64,000 nucleotides of DNA from assembly GCA_964469295.1 (NCBI GenBank), contig CAYXYJ010000003.1:12595-76594 (forward strand), given 5' to 3'. Positions 53,435 to 63,503 of this stretch are shown piece by piece. A model generated the notes under the pieces. It was not told where the DNA came from, ran no database searches, and saw nothing but the letters and a program-made list of their open reading frames with translations. The DNA is from an uncultured Candidatus Saccharibacteria bacterium. Lineage in GTDB: Bacteria > Patescibacteriota > Minisyncoccia > Phycocordibacterales > UBA918. Position numbers and translations under genes: made by a program. Each line of letters opens with the position of its first letter. The first letter of the stretch is position 1.

Positions 53435-53593
53435 ATTTATATTTTATATATAGTATACGCGTAATTATGCGTGCGGTCACGTCGGTGGTGAAAATTGGTC
53501 ATGATTAAGGAATCAGTGTTAAAGTACACTCGTAAAAACCAAAAACCTGCATCATTGCTGACGCAGGTGGTGGGTGGGGGCTAGCCCCCACCC

Positions 53594-53941
53594 TTAGTTC
53601 GTGGTCGTTGCCGGTTTCGGAAGCAGGTCGGGAACCGGTTCGTAGACGTCGAACCGGAAGCCGTCGCGGGTGGTTTGTCCAGCGAGGCGGAAGGTAGCAA
53701 TCCTCCCGTCTGCCATCGACCCGCGAGTCGGCGGCAGGGTAATGTTTCCGCAGACGTCGGCGACGACCGGGATTTCGATCAGATCGAAATTGGGGAAGGT
53801 ATCGCCAGCCGGGGCGAGAAAGGTGTACTCGGCCGGCTCGTTCCAGGTGCAAGCGGCGCTGTCCGCGAGGGTCAGCGCCGCGGCGGTTTCGGTGCTGATG
53901 GTCGCAGCCATGAGCACCGTGGTCAGAAGCAGATGCTTCAT
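53594..53941 (-). CDS. Small secreted hypothetical protein in a GC-rich (~62-65%) island
   Basis: MKHLLLTTVLMAATISTETAAALTLA is a signal peptide. GGAGG RBS 5 nt upstream of ATG (53939-53941). Terminator hairpin gggtggggg-ctag-cccccaccc at 53564-53587. Surrounding DNA is ~35-45% GC. Two conserved Cys. Confidence 0.55.
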   Translation of the reverse strand: MKHLLLTTVLMAATISTETAAALTLADSAACTWNEPAEYTFLAPAGDTFPNFDLIEIPVVADVCGNITLPPTRGSMADGRIATFRLAGQTTRDGFRFDVYEPVPDLLPKPATTTN

Positions 53942-54050
53942 TTGGTCCTCCAAGAGCTCGCTAGACCATCGCGGACACCACAGGTGTGGGCCGGACTAGC
54001 GATTGAACATATTATATACCATATCCTAGACATTTTGTAAAGTACCTTGT

Positions 54051-55025
54051 TTGGTGTGCATAAATATGGCGATATTTTACGCCGTAATTTCGTATACTTA
54101 CGGTATGGATATCGATACATCAGACGCAGTGATTTATGAAAAGAAACAGCTCCCTAAAGGGGTAAAAAAATGGGGATTTATTATCATTTGTACCGTTGGA
54201 GTAGTCGCTGCGTTGTGGTATGGCTGGCGGTGGAATAGCGAACGGGAAATCACCGCTTTGCAGGAAGGTCTCTCACTGGTTGAAGTACCCCCAGAGATGA
54301 TTCACCAGCAACCGGTAGGATATTTGGTGTATGAAGCACCGGATAATTTTTTACCTAAATCACTGGCCGAGCAATTTAACATGATGCCGGGTGAAACTAC
54401 GAACCTAGCGAGTGAAGACGATGAAGAATTGTCTCTCGTGCGTGATAATGACGATGCTCCAATAATTGCGAAAACTACTCCTGAATTGCCAAAACTGTGG
54501 TGGATGCGTGATATCCGTAACAATCTCGATATTCAGGTTGCTGCTGACGACGTCCGGCTAGAAACAACCAATAATTGGTCTATTGAAAATGGTGCCGTGA
54601 TGCGTCGTAACGATGACGGCACGGTGGCGTCGTATGTGCGCGAGGGCGACAATACGCCATTGACGCACTCACTCATCACATCCTCATATGATGAGAGTTA
54701 TATATTTGTAGCCAATCAGCAAATGAATACGCTTACGGTGTATGCGGTGGATCCAGAAAGACCACTCTTGCCGTTGGTCTATACGACGACAGTCGCGCAT
54801 GGCGATATTGTATCAATAACAACCGCACCGGATTTAAATCGGGTAGTCATCGTCACGACCAATAAAATCGGCACTTTCCTTTCGTATTATGATGCGTACA
54901 GCGATCGGGTGATTAAACAAGAACAGTTAGCAGATATGGCCACTCCGGTGACATTATTGGATTGGGTAACAATTAATCCTGTCGCTTCAGATTTACTTGA
55001 AGTAATTGAAGTGGAAGGAAATTAA
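54051..55025 (+). CDS. N-terminally TM-anchored extracytoplasmic beta-rich protein (hypothetical), module copy 1
   Basis: KWGFIIICTVGVVAALWYGW is an anchor. Stop overlaps the start of the giant gene (TAATG), indicating translational coupling. Confidence 0.45.
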   Translation: MVCINMAIFYAVISYTYGMDIDTSDAVIYEKKQLPKGVKKWGFIIICTVGVVAALWYGWRWNSEREITALQEGLSLVEVPPEMIHQQPVGYLVYEAPDNFLPKSLAEQFNMMPGETTNLASEDDEELSLVRDNDDAPIIAKTTPELPKLWWMRDIRNNLDIQVAADDVRLETTNNWSIENGAVMRRNDDGTVASYVREGDNTPLTHSLITSSYDESYIFVANQQMNTLTVYAVDPERPLLPLVYTTTVAHGDIVSITTAPDLNRVVIVTTNKIGTFLSYYDAYSDRVIKQEQLADMATPVTLLDWVTINPVASDLLEVIEVEGN

Positions 55026-57922
55026 TGTATGACTATTGTATGCGTATTTTAACTGAAAAATTTTCCGTTGCCTTTATTATCATGGTGCTGCTGGTACCTT
55101 ACATTACCTATGCATATCCAGCGGGAACACCTTCTTGGGATGATTGGGATGGTGATGGTAATCGATGGACTCATGGTGAAGATAATGATGGTTGGACTTC
55201 GTCTGGAGGTGGTGGTGGAGGTGGAGGTGGGGGGAACAACAATAATCCTCAAACTGTTGAAATTGATAGAAATCTCGGTACAACAGCTAATGTGCAAACA
55301 AATCGTCCGGGCGCAGATTACGTTTTGAGTCATACTCAAGTAATCAATGGTAGAACTTACCAAATATACGATTATACAGGAACCGTACGACCAGTGTTAC
55401 CAGGACAATCAAATCCTAATCCAGCCGGTTTTGTTGCTGTATTAATAAATGATAATAATGATAATGGTCACAGTTGCTCAGCATCGCGTCCCAATCTGGT
55501 GATTGAAGATATTTACCTAGTCCGTACTTCTTCTTCGAGCGAGGATGTGGATGAAGTTAATCTCGGTACAGATATCGAATATCGTCCGTATGCAATTGTA
55601 CGTAATACTTCATGTAAAAGCACAAATAGTTCTGGAAATAATCTTAGCTTACCAAGTGTCGCAGCGAGCGGTTCATTTCCTGTACGACTCCGCATTGATT
55701 ACAACAGTACTGATACGGCCAATCCATCATATGAGTACACCGAACAAATTGGTTTTGTTGGGCCGCTTGGGGGAAACATGAGCATGGCGGTAGCTTTTGA
55801 TCCAGTGACATTTACGAGTTTAGCGAGTCATGTATTTCAGGTGACTGCCGACCCTATTGCCAATCAGCAAAGTTTTGAGACCTGCACGGGCGGTGTGGGG
55901 TGTATCCGGGAAAGTAATGATACTGATAATACTCGCACTGAAACGTTCCGCACAACGCCACCAAGTGTGACGGTTGGGTCGTTTGTGTGGAGCAGTAATG
56001 TGCGTTTAAGTAGCAGTAACAACTATTGGACGACCTGGGATCATTTGACGACACCAGTTCGTGATATGGTCGCCCGGCCGCTCGCCAGTAGTGATCACGA
56101 AGTGGGAATTTATTGGATTGGGAATAAGGTTAATCTCGACCAGTGTACCGGTGTTGGTATTAATAATGATTTGCGTAATACCGCCGATTGGTGGCGAGTG
56201 AATTGGACGGGTTCTAACCATAGTGAGTCAAGATTTTGGGCTGGCCGCAGAGCTAGTGGCGCGTATCCATCGTGGCCAATGGGCTTTTGGTCGGGTGGTG
56301 ACAATTGGGACATTCGGCCGGTGGGGGGGACGATGGAGCAAAAATTAGCGTTTGCTGATAATAAAATCTTTTGGCGGGGTAGTGAGCAATACCATCGGAC
56401 GATGGCAGTGTTTGTGAACCGTGGCTTCCGTCAGGCGGTAGCGGCGGGTAATTATCATGAATATACCGTAACCTGTCCGGCCTATAATGGATCGACGGTA
56501 TCTGATACCCATATCGTCCGGAATGGGACGAGACCGGGGGTGACGTTACCAGTGTCTCTTCAGCCAAATTTACCCGACGTGACAGTGACAGCGGGAGAGG
56601 TGGTAGACCGAGTGCCATTTACGATTCAGAATAATGGGGCGGAAGCCATTTCGGGGATGACCTACACCCTCACTATTAATGGAGTAGCGGTGCATACGGT
56701 AGCGAGTAGTTCACGGGTCACCGCTGGCGGATTATTATCTACTCGTCCGGTAGTGAATTGGACGGCGCCAAATAACGCCCGAAATGTACCCATGGAGTTG
56801 TGCGTGAATCACCCGGGGCGAGCGACGACAACTCCAATCTGTGATCGAGGGGTGATAACAGTTACGGCTGTTCCGACTCACCCATTATCGTGCGATACAT
56901 TCACCATCAGTGACAATACATTAGAAGCTGGCCAAACCGCGACGGTGACTTGGTCAACCAGTAACGCTACATTTGCTACACTACAAGATACGTTAAATGG
57001 CACAACAATGATGGTGGGTGCTAGTGGAACTAGTCCGGCTATCATCTTCAGTCAGAACGCCAATCTTCGTCTCACTGCTTTTCGCGGAGCTGAACGACAA
57101 TCATGTCCAGACATTTTTGTTCAGGTGACTCCAGCGACCAACCCAGATCTCGCGGTAGCAAATTTCACAATTTCTACCTGTACGGATGAAGTGGCAACCA
57201 ATTGCCCAACTACCACTTGGCAGGCAACGGTGCAAAACATTGGTATTACCGCTACCCAGACAGCGCCATATGTACTGCAACGTCGCGTCGGTCCGGCGAC
57301 CTGGACAACCGTAGCGACGGGTAATATTCCCGCATTAGCCATCAGCGCGTCAACGCAAATCAGTGGCACTGTACGCAATATTGTTCCTGGTAATTATGTT
57401 TGGCGGGTGATCGTCAACGAGCCAGAACGGTATCCGGAAGAAACTCGGGCGAATAATATTAGCAATCCGGTTAATTTCATCATCACGCAAATACGAACAC
57501 CGCAATGTAGCGATGGTGATGATAATGATGGTGACGGCTATACCGACCGTAACGATTCTGGCTGCCGTCCCAATCCTAATGAACCGGAAGGACCAACAAA
57601 CACCTACGATCCCGACGACGATTCCGAAGCCGTCGTCGATAATCCCCAAATTACTATTACGGCCAACCCTGCTATTATCCGGTATGGTGATACGGCGACA
57701 ATTGAGTACAGTATTAGTAATCCTAATCCACTGACGTGTACCATGACTGGTCCCGGTATGCCTACAACCATTACCTATCCAGGCAATGTTGGACCAAGTG
57801 AAGCGTTGCAAGGAACGCATATTTCTGCACCACTGACGAGTACCCAAACATTCACTATTACCTGCGGCGCTACTCGAGCTCAGACTACTGTGGAAGTGAT
57901 TCCACTCGCACAGGAAATTTAA
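55025..57922 (+). CDS. Giant secreted surface protein (965 aa) with Gly10 linker, beta-sandwich repeats, CARDB-like domain and Ca-binding-like CSDGxDNDGDG motif, module copy 1
   Basis: N-terminal hydrophobic signal; SSGGGGGGGGGGNNNN; CARDB-like PDLAVANFTISTC...NIGITAT...; PQCSDGDDNDGDGYTDRNDSGC. The last ~33 aa are encoded by sequence identical to the 3' end of 59739..62519. Confidence 0.55.
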   Translation: MYDYCMRILTEKFSVAFIIMVLLVPYITYAYPAGTPSWDDWDGDGNRWTHGEDNDGWTSSGGGGGGGGGGNNNNPQTVEIDRNLGTTANVQTNRPGADYVLSHTQVINGRTYQIYDYTGTVRPVLPGQSNPNPAGFVAVLINDNNDNGHSCSASRPNLVIEDIYLVRTSSSSEDVDEVNLGTDIEYRPYAIVRNTSCKSTNSSGNNLSLPSVAASGSFPVRLRIDYNSTDTANPSYEYTEQIGFVGPLGGNMSMAVAFDPVTFTSLASHVFQVTADPIANQQSFETCTGGVGCIRESNDTDNTRTETFRTTPPSVTVGSFVWSSNVRLSSSNNYWTTWDHLTTPVRDMVARPLASSDHEVGIYWIGNKVNLDQCTGVGINNDLRNTADWWRVNWTGSNHSESRFWAGRRASGAYPSWPMGFWSGGDNWDIRPVGGTMEQKLAFADNKIFWRGSEQYHRTMAVFVNRGFRQAVAAGNYHEYTVTCPAYNGSTVSDTHIVRNGTRPGVTLPVSLQPNLPDVTVTAGEVVDRVPFTIQNNGAEAISGMTYTLTINGVAVHTVASSSRVTAGGLLSTRPVVNWTAPNNARNVPMELCVNHPGRATTTPICDRGVITVTAVPTHPLSCDTFTISDNTLEAGQTATVTWSTSNATFATLQDTLNGTTMMVGASGTSPAIIFSQNANLRLTAFRGAERQSCPDIFVQVTPATNPDLAVANFTISTCTDEVATNCPTTTWQATVQNIGITATQTAPYVLQRRVGPATWTTVATGNIPALAISASTQISGTVRNIVPGNYVWRVIVNEPERYPEETRANNISNPVNFIITQIRTPQCSDGDDNDGDGYTDRNDSGCRPNPNEPEGPTNTYDPDDDSEAVVDNPQITITANPAIIRYGDTATIEYSISNPNPLTCTMTGPGMPTTITYPGNVGPSEALQGTHISAPLTSTQTFTITCGATRAQTTVEVIPLAQEI

Positions 57923-58084
57923 TCACAATTACCTAACATCAACCGCCTGTTCTGGAGAGAACAGGCGGTTGATGTTATTCGTTCATGAGTAAGAGATTTC
58001 GTAAGATCAAAGATATAAAAATCACACCAATGAAAGTGTGATAGTGGGGGTGCGGGCGGTGCGAATGCATCGCCCGCAATGCGC

Positions 58085-58396
58085 TTAGAGCAGGCACTCA
58101 TCGCGCTGCGAGAGCGCGATGTAGCCCTTGACCTCACCGTCTTCTTGAAGAGCGAAAACGATGGGATGGCCATAGTGACCCCAGTCTTCGATGGCCGCCG
58201 CCGCAGCCCAGGCCATTTCTTCGGTGTCGAAGATGACATGGGTCCGGCCACGGCCGTCAACGAAGTCTTGAGACAGGGCAACGATATGCCCCATGTCACC
58301 GGCGGTCAGACACCGCACCGGGGCATCGGCAGCCACGGCGGTAGCAAAGGTAGCGGCGAAGAGTGTCGCCACCATGGCAGTGAAGGCGTTATTCAT
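58085..58396 (-). CDS. Small secreted hypothetical protein in a second GC-rich island
   Basis: MNNAFTAMVATLFAATFATAVAADA is a signal peptide. AGGAG RBS 7 nt upstream. Local GC is far above flanks. A GC hairpin lies downstream at ~58058-58080. Unrelated in sequence to the 53594 gene. Confidence 0.5.
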   Translation of the reverse strand: MNNAFTAMVATLFAATFATAVAADAPVRCLTAGDMGHIVALSQDFVDGRGRTHVIFDTEEMAWAAAAAIEDWGHYGHPIVFALQEDGEVKGYIALSQRDECLL

Positions 58397-58642: not shown

Positions 58643-59737
58643 ATGAACCCCGAAACTGATGCCGCATTTAGCGGCGAACGAATCAAACTCACTCCAGGCG
58701 AACGTTTTCGTCAAATTGTCATGGTGGTGGGAATAGTTTTGCTCGTCATAGTTGGAGCCAGTAGTTGGTATGTGTGGCACTGGCAACAGACACAGCCAGT
58801 TACGGTGATTAGCCATGGTCTCGAAGAGACCCAGGTGCCAACTAAAAATTTTCTAGTTGGGCAACTGTATTTTAGTGCTATCAGATCTGATGATGACACT
58901 GCTGCACCGTATATATACAAGAAAGATTTCACTGACGATTATATAAATCGAGCATTTGATTTTTCTGCTCTTTCTTATGCGTACAGCAATACACAATACG
59001 ACACAATGGTGACATATATTAATGAATCAGTTGATCCTGATGGACTGCAATTAATTTGGAGAGATCGGCAGACGGGAGAAACTGGGACGCTACCTCGCCT
59101 TACGGGATATTCGGAAATGGAATTAACGGTTTCACCAGATAATATTTATTACGCCTATTCTTATCTTGAAACTGCAGCTAAAAATCCTTCCCAACTAACT
59201 GATTGGGATATAGTACTGATAAATTCTGATACGTTAAAAATTACGGTGGTTAACGGAGCCATGGAACCGCACTTTACTGCTAATGGAAAGTATTTGTACT
59301 ACATGAAAACTGACGGTATTTACCGATATGATATTGAAACAGAGACTCACACATTGGTAAGTAATATCTATCAAGATCTGACTCCAATTGATGATTACAC
59401 TATTTCTGATAATGGTAATGTGCTGGTATTTACTTCACCATCACTGCGTACTATTTCGATACAAGAATTAGATGCAGAGGGGCACAGCACTGAAGTTGGC
59501 GCTGAAGTCGGGGTCGCGGTGCGGTATCGTCAACCGATGATGAGTCCGGATGGAGAAACGTATATTGTGATGGTCGCTAGAGATAACGATTTTGATACTA
59601 CGACACAAACGTATCATACGGTTTTCGGCGAGATTCGTTCATTGTATGGCAAAACAGTTCTTGATACTGTGCCATTTACGGGATTTGTACCTGGTTCGGT
59701 ACAGTTAAATGAATGGAGAGATGATATCCAAAATTAA
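58643..59737 (+). CDS. N-terminally TM-anchored beta-propeller-like protein (hypothetical), module copy 2
   Basis: FRQIVMVVGIVLLVIVGASSWYVW is an anchor. It is rich in Y/D/T repeats (PD40/TolB-like impression only). Stop TAA is 1 nt before the next ATG. Confidence 0.45.
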   Translation: MNPETDAAFSGERIKLTPGERFRQIVMVVGIVLLVIVGASSWYVWHWQQTQPVTVISHGLEETQVPTKNFLVGQLYFSAIRSDDDTAAPYIYKKDFTDDYINRAFDFSALSYAYSNTQYDTMVTYINESVDPDGLQLIWRDRQTGETGTLPRLTGYSEMELTVSPDNIYYAYSYLETAAKNPSQLTDWDIVLINSDTLKITVVNGAMEPHFTANGKYLYYMKTDGIYRYDIETETHTLVSNIYQDLTPIDDYTISDNGNVLVFTSPSLRTISIQELDAEGHSTEVGAEVGVAVRYRQPMMSPDGETYIVMVARDNDFDTTTQTYHTVFGEIRSLYGKTVLDTVPFTGFVPGSVQLNEWRDDIQN

Positions 59738-59738
59738 T

Positions 59739-62519
59739 ATGAAAAATCACCATATGAAACTTAAAATATTTTTTTTCGCCATCTCAGCCATTATTGTGCT
59801 TAGTGTTACTCCATCAAACGCACTCGCTACTGTTGGTGGCCCAACCGAAGTAGGACAAACTGGGTCGGTAACAAATGACGGTTACTTTCAAAATTTTGAT
59901 ACCGGACGAGAACATCTCATTCAATCATCATACGATCAGGCTCGTGATATGGGGAATGTGATTGCGGCAGCCACGGGTCATAATGTCGTAACAGTTTTTG
60001 CGTTGCAAAATGCACGTACTGGAGCCATTCAAGGTTATATTGTTGTGACTCGGTATGTGCCACCAATCGCCACGAGCGGCAGTCGGGATGATGACACTTG
60101 CGATAGTGCTCCCGGTGTAGGATTTAGAGACGATTCAATTAGATTTATCCGTATTACTGATGGGATGCCGGTTGATCGAACGGCGTTATTAACCAATGTA
60201 CCGTATCGCGTGACCGCGGGTGTACAAAACAGTAATTGTTGGCCAACCAATGGTATTTCTCGGTACCACTATAATGACAGCGCGTGGTATACCGGTACGG
60301 AATTTGTCCGTATTAATAATCCGGCTCAATCGTATGGGCAACCACCAGCTAACCGTGGAAACACACCGTATCGTAACCAATTACCGTTTGGTGAAAATGG
60401 TACATTTCCAGTGGAAATCCAAATTGATGAAGGTGACAATGGATCAGTGGATACACGAATGAGCATTAATCAAGTCGGTCCACTTGATGGACAAAGTGGT
60501 TCTAAAACGCATATGATTGCTACAGATAGCAATCTCGACACCCCACGGCAATATCCCTATGAACATTTCTATGTGCACCCGAATACGCTTGATGTGCCAA
60601 CCGGGTACACTACCTTAAATATAAACTCACTCGATCCAACCGAGGGGACTTTTACGCATTCAATGTGGCGATCGCTCCCGTTTGCAGATAGTCGTTGGCG
60701 TATGGGTCCTGGGATAACGGTGATTTCACCAGTGGTGGAATTTGATACAGCCACCACTGGTCGGGTGCGGGCGTACACTGATGTGGGTTGTGGCGGATCA
60801 TTTGGGTGCATCGTTGGGAGTTCAGATGGACAAGGGTTGGATTTTCGAGTGCTTGGTGCACCACAAATAACATTGGGATCGTATATTATTGGGAATAACA
60901 CAATTACTGACGTCAGTACGCGTGAACGACGAGACGTTACTGCCGGACAACAAATTGGTTTGTATTGGAGCGGGAGCAATGTTGATGTAAGTACCTGTAC
61001 TGGTCGAGTGCGATTAGAAAATGGCAGTACCGACAACGATTTTACGGCAGTTGGTGATACGACTGGCCTGACCGCCAATCAGTTGTTACTTATCCCCGCT
61101 AATACCAGTCGTATTGATTCCACTATTACTGAACCGACGACACAATACCGAACATATACCATTACCTGTGGCGTGGCTGGTGGTGGAGATACTGTGTCTG
61201 ATAGTATTATTTTATCCAACGGACCATTATCAGCTACGGTGCAACTTGACCCATTACTGGCAAATATGAGTGTGGCGTATCCCGATACCATCACTTCTAT
61301 TCCGTTTCGTGTACACAACGCTGGGACAATTGGGGTAAATAACTTTACCTATACCTTCACCATTGATGGCCAAACGTATCCGTCTGGGGCGTTTGCTGGT
61401 AGTTTACCAATCGCTACTAATTCTGACGTTTTGTATGGTGTAGTTAATTACCAAGTACCGTTGCGTGATGATGATACGTATACCATCCCAATGCGAGTCT
61501 GTGTGCAGCGTCCACAAATGACTACTGAACAATGCGACAATGCGACAATTACCGTGACCGTGGGGAGTACTATAGCTTCAGAATGTAGCGATGGTATTGA
61601 TAATCTGGATGAGGAAGATACTCTGGCCGATGCGGATGATCCGGGATGTTGGACCAATCCAACTGACCCAATGACGTATTATCCACAAGACACTTCCGAA
61701 ACGAATAATCGGGTTGATACAGCAGTGCCGGATTTGTTGGCAAGTGTTCGACCAATTGATGACTGTACCACCAATACTACTACCTGCTCGATGACGTATC
61801 GCGCTCGTATCAGTAACCTTGGTACCGCCACACCGGTAGGCGAACCGATTCCATATGTTTTTGAACGTCGTCTACGACCAACTGGTGCGTGGCAAACGAT
61901 ACAGACAGGAACCATAATCAATACTATCAATCAAGGAAATTACCGTGATGTCACATTCACTGAAACGTTGACTCTCGGTAATTACGAAGTGCGGGCCCGA
62001 GTAAATCAACCAACACCAAACAGTAATCTTCGAGAAACCATATTCACGAATAATACGAGTGGTCCGGTAGCGTTTACCGTGATGAGGGATGCTATCCCGC
62101 AGTGTTCTGATGGAGTGAACAATGACGCTCCCGAAGATACGTATATCGACGCCGCCGACCCTGGTTGCTGGGCGAGTTCAACCGATTCAACAACATATGA
62201 TCCAAATGATACTACCGAGTCGTTAGTTGTCGCGCCAACCATTACTATTTCGGCACGGCCACAAATCGTACGGTACAACGACACTGCTTCAATTACCTAC
62301 ACTATCAGAGGGGTGAATCCGGTGTCCTGTCAATTGACTGGTCCCGGTATACCGACAGCATCCATATCGTATCCAACGGTAGCCTCTGGCATAACCAATA
62401 CCATTACGGGAACGCACATTTCCGCACCACTGACGAGTACCCAAACATTCACTATTACCTGCGGCGCTACTCGAGCTCAGACTACTGTGGAAGTGATTCC
62501 ACTCGCACAGGAAATTTAA
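59739..62519 (+). CDS. Giant secreted surface protein paralog (~927 aa) with CARDB-like domain and two CSDGxDN...DPGC motifs, module copy 2
   Basis: Start set at MKNHHMKLKIFFFAISAIIVLSVTPSNALA (signal peptide). The track start 59709 overlaps the upstream gene. CARDB-like PDLLASVRPIDDCTT...; motifs SECSDGIDNLDEEDTLADADDPGC and PQCSDGVNNDAPEDTYIDAADPGC. C-terminus identical to 55025..57922. Confidence 0.55.
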   Translation: MKNHHMKLKIFFFAISAIIVLSVTPSNALATVGGPTEVGQTGSVTNDGYFQNFDTGREHLIQSSYDQARDMGNVIAAATGHNVVTVFALQNARTGAIQGYIVVTRYVPPIATSGSRDDDTCDSAPGVGFRDDSIRFIRITDGMPVDRTALLTNVPYRVTAGVQNSNCWPTNGISRYHYNDSAWYTGTEFVRINNPAQSYGQPPANRGNTPYRNQLPFGENGTFPVEIQIDEGDNGSVDTRMSINQVGPLDGQSGSKTHMIATDSNLDTPRQYPYEHFYVHPNTLDVPTGYTTLNINSLDPTEGTFTHSMWRSLPFADSRWRMGPGITVISPVVEFDTATTGRVRAYTDVGCGGSFGCIVGSSDGQGLDFRVLGAPQITLGSYIIGNNTITDVSTRERRDVTAGQQIGLYWSGSNVDVSTCTGRVRLENGSTDNDFTAVGDTTGLTANQLLLIPANTSRIDSTITEPTTQYRTYTITCGVAGGGDTVSDSIILSNGPLSATVQLDPLLANMSVAYPDTITSIPFRVHNAGTIGVNNFTYTFTIDGQTYPSGAFAGSLPIATNSDVLYGVVNYQVPLRDDDTYTIPMRVCVQRPQMTTEQCDNATITVTVGSTIASECSDGIDNLDEEDTLADADDPGCWTNPTDPMTYYPQDTSETNNRVDTAVPDLLASVRPIDDCTTNTTTCSMTYRARISNLGTATPVGEPIPYVFERRLRPTGAWQTIQTGTIINTINQGNYRDVTFTETLTLGNYEVRARVNQPTPNSNLRETIFTNNTSGPVAFTVMRDAIPQCSDGVNNDAPEDTYIDAADPGCWASSTDSTTYDPNDTTESLVVAPTITISARPQIVRYNDTASITYTIRGVNPVSCQLTGPGIPTASISYPTVASGITNTITGTHISAPLTSTQTFTITCGATRAQTTVEVIPLAQEI

Positions 62520-62534
62520 TCGATAAAGAGCACA

Positions 62535-62583
62535 ACTATAACCGAAGAGCCGCCGGGCTTGCCCGGCGGCTCTTCGGTTATAG
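62535..62583. terminator. 49-nt perfect palindrome ctataaccgaagagccgccgggc-ttg-cccggcggctcttcggttatag
   Basis: Lies between convergent giant gene 2 and ruvA. Shares the 22-nt core gccgccgggcttgcccggcggc with the hairpin at 50151-50174. Confidence 0.8.
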
Positions 62584-63141
62584 TTGTTGCAAGGCTGCTT
62601 TCACCAGAGTGGTAGTGCTGGCGTTTTGATCCATCGTGTCGAGCACCTGCCGTACTGATTGAGGATTGTATCCAAGTGCGAGCAAAGTATCAAAAGCATC
62701 CTGATACTGTGCATTTTTTATACCGGTAATTGGTGTCGCGATGATGGCGGTGTCAATTTTATCCTTGAGACCAAGGATAATTTTCTCGGCTGTTTTGCGA
62801 CCAAGACCAGCTAACGTGACTAACTGATCCGCATCATTGTTGCTCACTGCGGTCAAAATAAGCGTGCGGTCGGCTTTATCCAAAATATCCATAGCTGATT
62901 TTGGTCCAATTCCCGAGATGGTGAGTAATAACTCAAAAATTTCTAAATCATGTGGCGTGACAAATCCATACAAATCGTCAGCGGTTTCTCGTAGTGCGTG
63001 GTGGGTGTAGAGAGTCACGGTGTCGTGGGGGAGTAGTGCCGTTCGTTTCGGACACGTAACCAGATACCCTACACCGCTTCCGGTCATAATAACGGTTTCA
63101 GGGATGGTTTCTATGACGGTACCAGTGAGTCGACGAATCAT
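62578..63141 (-). CDS. ruvA: Holliday junction DNA helicase RuvA
   Basis: MIRRLTGTV... OB-fold N-domain, helix-hairpin-helix pair (ISGIGPKSAMDIL, LAGLGRKTAEKII), and C-terminal domain III. The track start at 63237 would overlap rpsT, so the internal Met at 63141 is preferred. Confidence 0.8.
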   Translation of the reverse strand: MIRRLTGTVIETIPETVIMTGSGVGYLVTCPKRTALLPHDTVTLYTHHALRETADDLYGFVTPHDLEIFELLLTISGIGPKSAMDILDKADRTLILTAVSNNDADQLVTLAGLGRKTAEKIILGLKDKIDTAIIATPITGIKNAQYQDAFDTLLALGYNPQSVRQVLDTMDQNASTTTLVKAALQQL

Positions 63142-63230
63142 ACAGTATATTGTACCGCACCAAGCCCAGAAATGGTGGTATTGATTTATTTTAGCAAATA
63201 CCGTATAGTGTGCGGACTTAGAAAAAGTAT

Positions 63231-63503
63231 ATGGCAATTACCAAAAACGCAAAGAAAGCAATCCGCACCAGTGAACGAAAGCGTGTTTACAATGTGCGCC
63301 GAACAACCGCGATGCGCGAAGTTGTAAAATCTGTCCGCAAATCTGTTGCCTCTGGCGATATCGATAATGCAAAGACTTTATTACCAAAAGCTTATAAAGC
63401 GATTGATAAAGCTGCCAAACGTGGTGTTATCAAAGATAATACAGCCGCACGTAAAAAGTCTCGATTGATGGCAGCGATCAAGAAAATTGAAAAGCCTTCA
63501 TAA
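63231..63503 (+). CDS. rpsT: 30S ribosomal protein S20
   Basis: MAITKNAKKAIRTSERKRVYNVRRTTAMREVVK...AARKKSRLMAAIKK is the typical S20. Confidence 0.88.
   Translation: MAITKNAKKAIRTSERKRVYNVRRTTAMREVVKSVRKSVASGDIDNAKTLLPKAYKAIDKAAKRGVIKDNTAARKKSRLMAAIKKIEKPS

Follow-up and report, generated by a model that had tools for sequence, protein, structure and literature searches.

Why should two secreted proteins that have otherwise drifted far apart end in the same nucleotides, down to their synonymous sites? This question is raised by a contig of an uncultured, ultrasmall Candidatus Saccharibacteria bacterium of the Patescibacteria (CAYXYJ010000003.1), from which we analysed one stretch of 64,000 nucleotides (nt), referred to here as the window. 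It carries two large tandem paralogs, genes A and B, whose last 98 nt are identical. A recent, short and non-reciprocal recombination event (ectopic gene conversion) that copied the last ~98-113 nt between the tandem paralogs probably accounts for this identity. The genes, which encode immunoglobulin-like (Ig-like) modules, and the shared tract are laid out as follows.

55025-57922, forward strand: gene A, 965 amino acids (aa), NCBI protein P0001; signal peptide, Gly/Asn run, CARDB-like Ig modules, acidic double-disulfide repeat and a C-terminal Ig-like domain that includes the tail.
59709-62519, forward strand: gene B, 936 aa from the first ATG; secreted paralog of A, given by NCBI as 921 aa with its start at 59754 (P0034).
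57827-57924, forward strand: repeat copy 1, in which the final 31 codons of gene A (APLTSTQTFTITCGATRAQTTVEVIPLAQEI) are followed by TAA and TC; defined by direct comparison.
62424-62521, forward strand: repeat copy 2, in which the final 31 codons of gene B are followed by TAA and TC; defined by direct comparison and repeat search.
57812-57826, forward strand: 5' shoulder of the tract (encoding GTHIS), matching 62409-62423 at 13 of 15 positions with both differences synonymous; similarity collapses upstream.

By direct comparison, 57827-57924 and 62424-62521 are 100% identical over 98 nt, exactly as the initial annotation had stated, and the identity breaks off at the very next base in both directions. 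It holds 31 codons, the stop codon TAA and the dinucleotide TC. The sequences 3' of TAA and TC are unrelated in A and B, which bears out the earlier claim that the tract ends there. A repeat search of the window returned a slightly longer match, 57812-57924 against 62409-62521 (113 nt at 98%), the two mismatches of which, CAT/CAC (His) and TCT/TCC (Ser), are both synonymous. Near-identity thus begins at 57812/62409 and not at 57811/62408, as had been proposed, the latter positions being A and G, respectively. Likewise, the tail of 33 aa described earlier corresponds to 31 codons in the exact tract and to an identical peptide of 36 aa at the ends of A and B (GTHIS...AQEI), in which 34 of the 36 codons are the same; the peptides quoted at the time were correct. 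When the A locus was compared with the B locus by blastn, no further significant DNA match appeared, the runners-up being 23 nt at 91% and 41 nt at 78%. At the protein level, A and B are alignable only over their C-terminal ~500 aa, with 37-39% identity (E 4e-65), in agreement with the moderate identity that had been noted upstream of the tail. The two genes lie on the same strand, 4.6 kb apart, and both are complete and encode N-terminal signal peptides; with lengths of 965 aa and 936 aa (921 aa from the start chosen by NCBI), they are better called large than 'giant'.

How much of this identity could selection on the protein provide? Outside the tail, the alignment of A and B contains 258 identical residues, of which 113 (44%) also share their codon. 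Within the domain that carries the tract, the 55 codons immediately 5' of it have 28 of 55 aa in common and 58% nucleotide identity. Synonymous sites are saturated between A and B outside the tail, and selection on amino acids alone therefore cannot give 31 identical codons. The chance of 31 consecutive identical codons is 0.44^31, or about 1e-11, and that of a perfect run of 98 nt is ~1e-20. Since such identity goes beyond what selection on the peptide can achieve, either a recent homogenising event or a function residing in the nucleotides themselves is needed.

The end of the peptide nevertheless appears to be under selection. A and B end in VEVIPLAQEI, and three homologs end in VEVVPPVQEV (P0002), VEVIPNIQEV (P0003) and VEVIPTFQEI (P0004); distant homologs keep VE[VI][VI]PxxQE[VI]-COOH at their extreme C-terminus. 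Among 152 sequences the core P..QE[VI] was found 12 times, in every case at the very end of the protein and in no case internally. It is possible to imagine that purifying selection on this C-terminal peptide, acting without any recombination, produced identical tails, and the strong conservation of a strictly terminal motif across Patescibacteria speaks for such a scenario. However, the codon test, with 44% codon identity elsewhere, effectively refutes it, and the conservation that is seen family-wide covers only the last ~10 residues while the 20 residues before them vary between genomes, so that we regard peptide selection alone as barely conceivable. The initial annotation had named selection on a C-terminal signal as an alternative to recombination: the idea of such a signal has support, as the terminal motif is indeed conserved and strictly terminal, but by itself it fails to explain the identity at the nucleotide level.

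A second line of evidence comes from relatives in which two tail genes reside together. Identity over the last 95 aa of such co-resident pairs is 1.00 in locus L037, 0.78 in L080, 0.72 in L003 and 0.67 in the window, and it falls to 0.52 in L009, 0.45 in L106, 0.34 in L059 and 0.33 in L084. The L003 pair has 77% DNA identity over 208 nt, with conserved peptides and many synonymous changes, and the L009 and L080 pairs show the same pattern. Since the tails of L003, L009 and L080 differ freely at synonymous sites under the same constraint, the nucleotide identity in the window points to recent homogenisation. The earlier proposal of recent recombination or gene conversion is thus supported both by the codon test and by the free synonymous change in co-resident tails of relatives. 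Moreover, L113, an independent metagenome contig with a fusA-tuf context, contains tandem copies (1-110 and 1358-1467) that are 100% identical over at least 110 nt, a lower bound because the first copy is cut by the edge of the locus; this identity ends at the stop codon, immediately past which the copies diverge. Short homogenisation limited to the tail has therefore happened at least twice independently, in the window and in L113. A larger event is found in L037, a metagenome-assembled genome (MAG) of Saccharibacteria, where the 3' part of the tail gene is perfectly duplicated over 1080 nt, past the stop codon and through the terminator, and the same 1080-nt arrangement is present in L095, an independent assembly.

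The alternative that the DNA or RNA itself is under selection, with the 98 nt serving as a functional element such as a 3' mRNA structure, a small-RNA target or a recombinase site, must be weighed together with the hairpins that follow each gene.

57934-57977, forward strand: hairpin after A with a perfect 20-bp stem, 12 nt past the stop codon of A (z -5.5); putative terminator.
62530-62590, no strand assigned: hairpin after B with a stem of ~26-28 bp that overlaps the stop codon of ruvA (z -8.4); putative bidirectional terminator.

Every synonymous site of the tract is identical, the tract ends just past the stop codon and strong hairpins adjoin it, all of which speaks for such an element. 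The tail also folds slightly better than its shuffles, but this signal is marginal (z -2.0, reached by 8 of 200 shuffles). The two hairpins, which are unusually long and lack a clear T-tract, are unrelated to each other in sequence. Rfam finds only tRNAs and nothing at the tract, there is no third copy in the 64-kb window and no recombinase adjoining the tract, and homologous tails elsewhere vary freely at synonymous sites. A nucleic-acid element thus appears very unlikely to underlie the identity.

The 3'-terminal position of the repeat in two surface-protein genes, with hairpins just beyond, also calls to mind a diversity-generating retroelement (DGR). DGRs are common in Patescibacteria, where surface-protein genes bear the variable repeats at their 3' termini and a hairpin comes next. 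In this scenario, or in a related one involving antigenic-variation cassettes, the tail would be a variable or template repeat or a conserved flank for recombination. We searched the 64 kb for the hallmarks of a DGR and rejected this candidate: no open reading frame (ORF) resembling a reverse transcriptase and no third or template copy is present, and the differences between the copies are T/C rather than adenine-specific. Cassettes of the pilE/pilS or vlsE type were rejected as well, as both genes are complete with signal peptides and share one segment without flanks on two sides. Given what the 64 kb contain, both systems are most unlikely sources of the tract.

If gene conversion homogenised the tails, how old are the genes that carry them? 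Each tail gene is preceded, and overlapped, by a co-oriented partner gene, C in the case of A and D in the case of B.

54051-55025, forward strand: partner gene C, 324 aa; one membrane helix at the N-terminus and a weak signal of beta-propeller type; the stop codon of C overlaps the start of A.
58643-59737, forward strand: partner gene D, 364 aa; one membrane helix at the N-terminus and a weak signal of PD40/TolB type.

C and D are without real similarity and cannot be aligned to each other, yet each cassette has its own orthologs elsewhere. The nearest relative of A, P0002 (45% identity), lies in L001, where an ortholog of C (42% identity, E 5e-73) is found upstream of the ortholog of A. An ortholog of D (26% identity, E 3e-31) is located between the two tail genes of L003, and tail gene, partner, second tail gene and ruvA follow one another in the window, L003 and L037 alike. 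A homolog search with B found only B itself. Because each cassette has separate orthologs and C and D are unalignable, the duplication is old: the C+A and D+B cassettes represent old, separate lineages, and the identity of their tails is secondary.

These observations suggest how conversion may have come about. After an old duplication, the C+A and D+B cassettes diverged deeply, while selection on the peptide (terminal motif VEVIPxxQEI-COOH) would have kept the end of the shared Ig-like domain similar. This similar C-terminal segment would have remained the sole substrate for recombination between A and B, and the last ~98-113 nt of one paralog would have been copied onto the other, in a tract that reaches the stop codon, where homology ends, and whose 5' edge lies at an indel-rich loop that breaks the alignment. 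A pathway of the RecA/RuvAB type would be a plausible agent; ruvA and ruvB are both present in the window. Perhaps identical tails are of benefit in that both proteins could use the same receptor or anchor for their free C-terminus. Several hallmarks of gene conversion are found here, namely paralogs in the same genome, a tract of identity that includes synonymous sites and is far longer than expected from the divergence of its flanks, and flanks with separate histories.

Three considerations weigh against this interpretation. First, classical conversion needs homology on both sides, and since only TC is shared past the stop codon, resolution on the 3' side is unexplained; with so little 3' homology, template switching or annealing and resolution inside the tract must be assumed. 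Second, donor and recipient do not appear to be assignable from the sequences at hand, as B has no other homolog. Third, the evidence comes from a single metagenome-assembled contig, and the identity could be an artefact of assembly or polishing in which two similar true tails were present and one was overwritten. P0001 and P0034 do derive from one NCBI contig of 92,622 bp of metagenome-assembled sequence, and our searches found no independent assembly of this organism. However, a repeat of 98 nt is shorter than the maximum k-mers in common use and both copies have unique flanks; assemblers would not collapse tails that differ as much as those of L003 (~77% identity); L113, an independent assembly, shows the phenomenon too; and duplicated tails were assembled identically in two datasets (L037 and L095). 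We therefore consider an artefact unlikely.

Concerted evolution by gene conversion is well known in bacteria, for example in the babA/babB and other Hop genes of Helicobacter pylori, which have near-identical 3' segments, and in tufA/tufB. As in those cases, a sharply bounded tract of nucleotide identity is set within otherwise diverged paralogs of the same genome, and as in the bab genes the homogenised part encodes a conserved C-terminal region. Unlike bab and tuf conversion, however, the tract described here is only 98-113 nt long and abuts the stop codon without downstream homology, and it joins paralogs that are far more diverged, with 39% aa identity. As an instance of gene conversion the finding is ordinary, a new example of a known phenomenon.

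What the homogenised segment encodes is less ordinary to place. It falls within a domain at the end of each protein.

57641-57919, forward strand: C-terminal 93-aa Ig-like domain of A (aa 873-965), from an AlphaFold2 model.
62232-62516, forward strand: C-terminal 95-aa Ig-like domain of B (aa 842-936), from the alignment.

The AlphaFold2 model of the last 93 aa of A is an eight-strand Ig-like sandwich with a predicted local distance difference test score (pLDDT) of 84, and its final six residues, PLAQEI, are of low confidence. In this model the identical tract would correspond to the last three beta-strands of the domain together with the six-residue tail PLAQEI; the protein ends six residues past the last beta-strand. 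Foldseek searches with the modelled domain gave generic Ig-like matches only, the top PDB entry being SoxY (2oxg_D; template modelling score 0.61, E 4e-3). The domain resembles this sulfur carrier in its Ig-like fold and in a short, flexible extension of the C-terminus past the last strand, but it has neither a GGCGG motif nor a sulfur-oxidation context, and the match is weak and generic to Ig-like folds. A profile of the domain matches 2295 representative proteins in a library of 1.84 billion, mostly proteins with Ig repeats in multiple copies, and the domain occurs on proteins with unrelated N-terminal parts. No family in Pfam, NCBIfam or PADLOC and no entry in PDB sequence searches covers it, no solved structure is related to it by sequence, and a literature search returned nothing on the domain or the tail.

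The terminal motif has a narrow distribution. In public data VE[VI][VI]PxxQE[VI]-stop forms the C-terminal end of about 90 long ORFs, and all those that are taxonomically named belong to Patescibacteria. When the back-translated motif with its stop codon was scanned against 185,579 species genomes (GTDB representatives, the genome of this organism not being among those matched), 36 stretches were recovered, compared with ~17 expected by chance according to our own calculation. Those that end long ORFs with a ...C...VEV pattern all come from Kaiserbacteria, Saccharibacteria, Paceibacterota, Parcubacteria or Elulimicrobium, the last of which we take to belong to Patescibacteria, and the matches in other phyla fall in short ORFs or are read through TGG. 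In JGI metagenomes the motif was matched 86 times, 72 of them at the end of long ORFs of this type; the single match in viral contigs looks like chance. The exact peptide tail of A and B had no match in a metagenome scan, and among the best 150 of the 2295 domain matches no third protein besides P0001 and P0034 has it. About 2-4 tail-motif genes are seen per genome. The tail family looks like a small conserved family and not like a large sorting regulon.

Does the motif serve as a signal? It is possible, if somewhat speculative, that the tract marks an undescribed C-terminal recognition signal specific to Patescibacteria, that a dedicated receptor or anchor binds its free carboxylate and that conversion keeps the tails of co-resident proteins matched. 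Such a receptor could be a PDZ-like or propeller protein, for example the membrane-anchored C and D. There are parallels in known systems. The C-terminal domains of type IX secretion system (T9SS) substrates in Bacteroidota (TIGR04183/TIGR04131) are likewise Ig-like beta-sandwiches of ~90 aa at the extreme C-terminus of diverse secreted proteins, but what is conserved here is the final 10 residues and their free carboxyl terminus, and there are ~2-4 genes per genome. Neither the whole proteins nor the 93-aa domain matched the T9SS families in NCBIfam or Pfam, and to our knowledge Patescibacteria have neither an outer membrane nor a T9SS. The tail also resembles sortase, exosortase and rhombosortase signals (LPXTG, PEP-CTERM and GlyGly-CTERM) in being a short, lineage-restricted C-terminal motif on secreted proteins. 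It differs from them in lacking their tripartite layout, with no hydrophobic helix or basic tail after ...TVEVIPLAQEI-stop, and the NCBIfam models for sorting signals gave no match at E<=10.

The tail genes occur in two recurrent genomic settings, which emerged from clustering the ORFs of 84 loci for gene context. In 23 of the 84 loci a member of the EF-G/EF-Tu cluster is present, the usual arrangement being fusA, tail gene, small membrane or Hint-domain protein, tuf; a tail gene between fusA and tuf is an unusual insertion in one of the most conserved bacterial gene orders. Loci of this kind with a tail gene are L002, L008, L009, L015, L042, L052, L053, L061, L062, L065, L072, L086, L090, L093, L100 and L113, and a small membrane protein together with a protein bearing a Hint/intein-like domain often follows the tail gene there. 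The other setting is defined by ruvA, which is present in 19 of the 84 loci, the window included, and is typically convergent with the tail gene or genes. Convergent tail genes are seen in L003, L010, L023, L037, L047, L063, L077, L084, L089, L095, L098, L104, L119 and the window (59709-63237), where ruvA (62578-63237, minus strand) directly follows B. One genome may carry one gene of each setting, as illustrated by L002 with L021 and by L015 with L010.

Other genes of the window show that it is part of a bacterial chromosome, as it encodes Pol I, a Mur ligase, a PilB-type ATPase, RuvB, PBP1, TyrRS and DnaN; its RuvA shares 56% identity with the RuvA of a MAG that carries the label Candidatus Saccharibacteria. 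Both A and B have weak CARDB matches and acidic double-disulfide repeats. The repeat CSDGxDNDxDxxxDxxDxGC, found once in A (57504-57543) and twice in B (61582-61621 and 62101-62140), is placed directly before Ig-like modules and matches NCBIfam NF033662 below its cutoff. Near the N-terminus of A, a run rich in GGT, GGA and GGG (55205-55246) encodes ten Gly and then four Asn, which may serve as a flexible linker or be prone to slippage; a comparable poly-Gly run is present in the L037 homolog. Only two islands of the window are GC-rich (53551-54000 and 58051-58350, ~63% GC as against 45% overall), and each lies directly upstream of one cassette. They contain small minus-strand ORFs with signal-peptide-like N-termini, 53594-53953 (119 aa) and 58085-58396 (103 aa), which may have been acquired horizontally. 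These two ORFs are dissimilar to each other and have no match in Pfam, NCBIfam, PADLOC or plasmids, and a tblastn search of plasmids with the ORF at 58085-58396 was likewise negative. PADLOC found no defence system in the window.

The shared 3' end of A and B provides a clean, textbook-style conversion tract in an uncultured lineage and indicates that homologous recombination shapes the surface-protein genes of the reduced genomes of Patescibacteria. The more useful by-product is the motif itself, which is strictly terminal, restricted to this lineage and without a model in Pfam or NCBIfam. If the tail were an anchoring or sorting signal, it would provide an entry point to the surface display of proteins by these episymbiotic bacteria.

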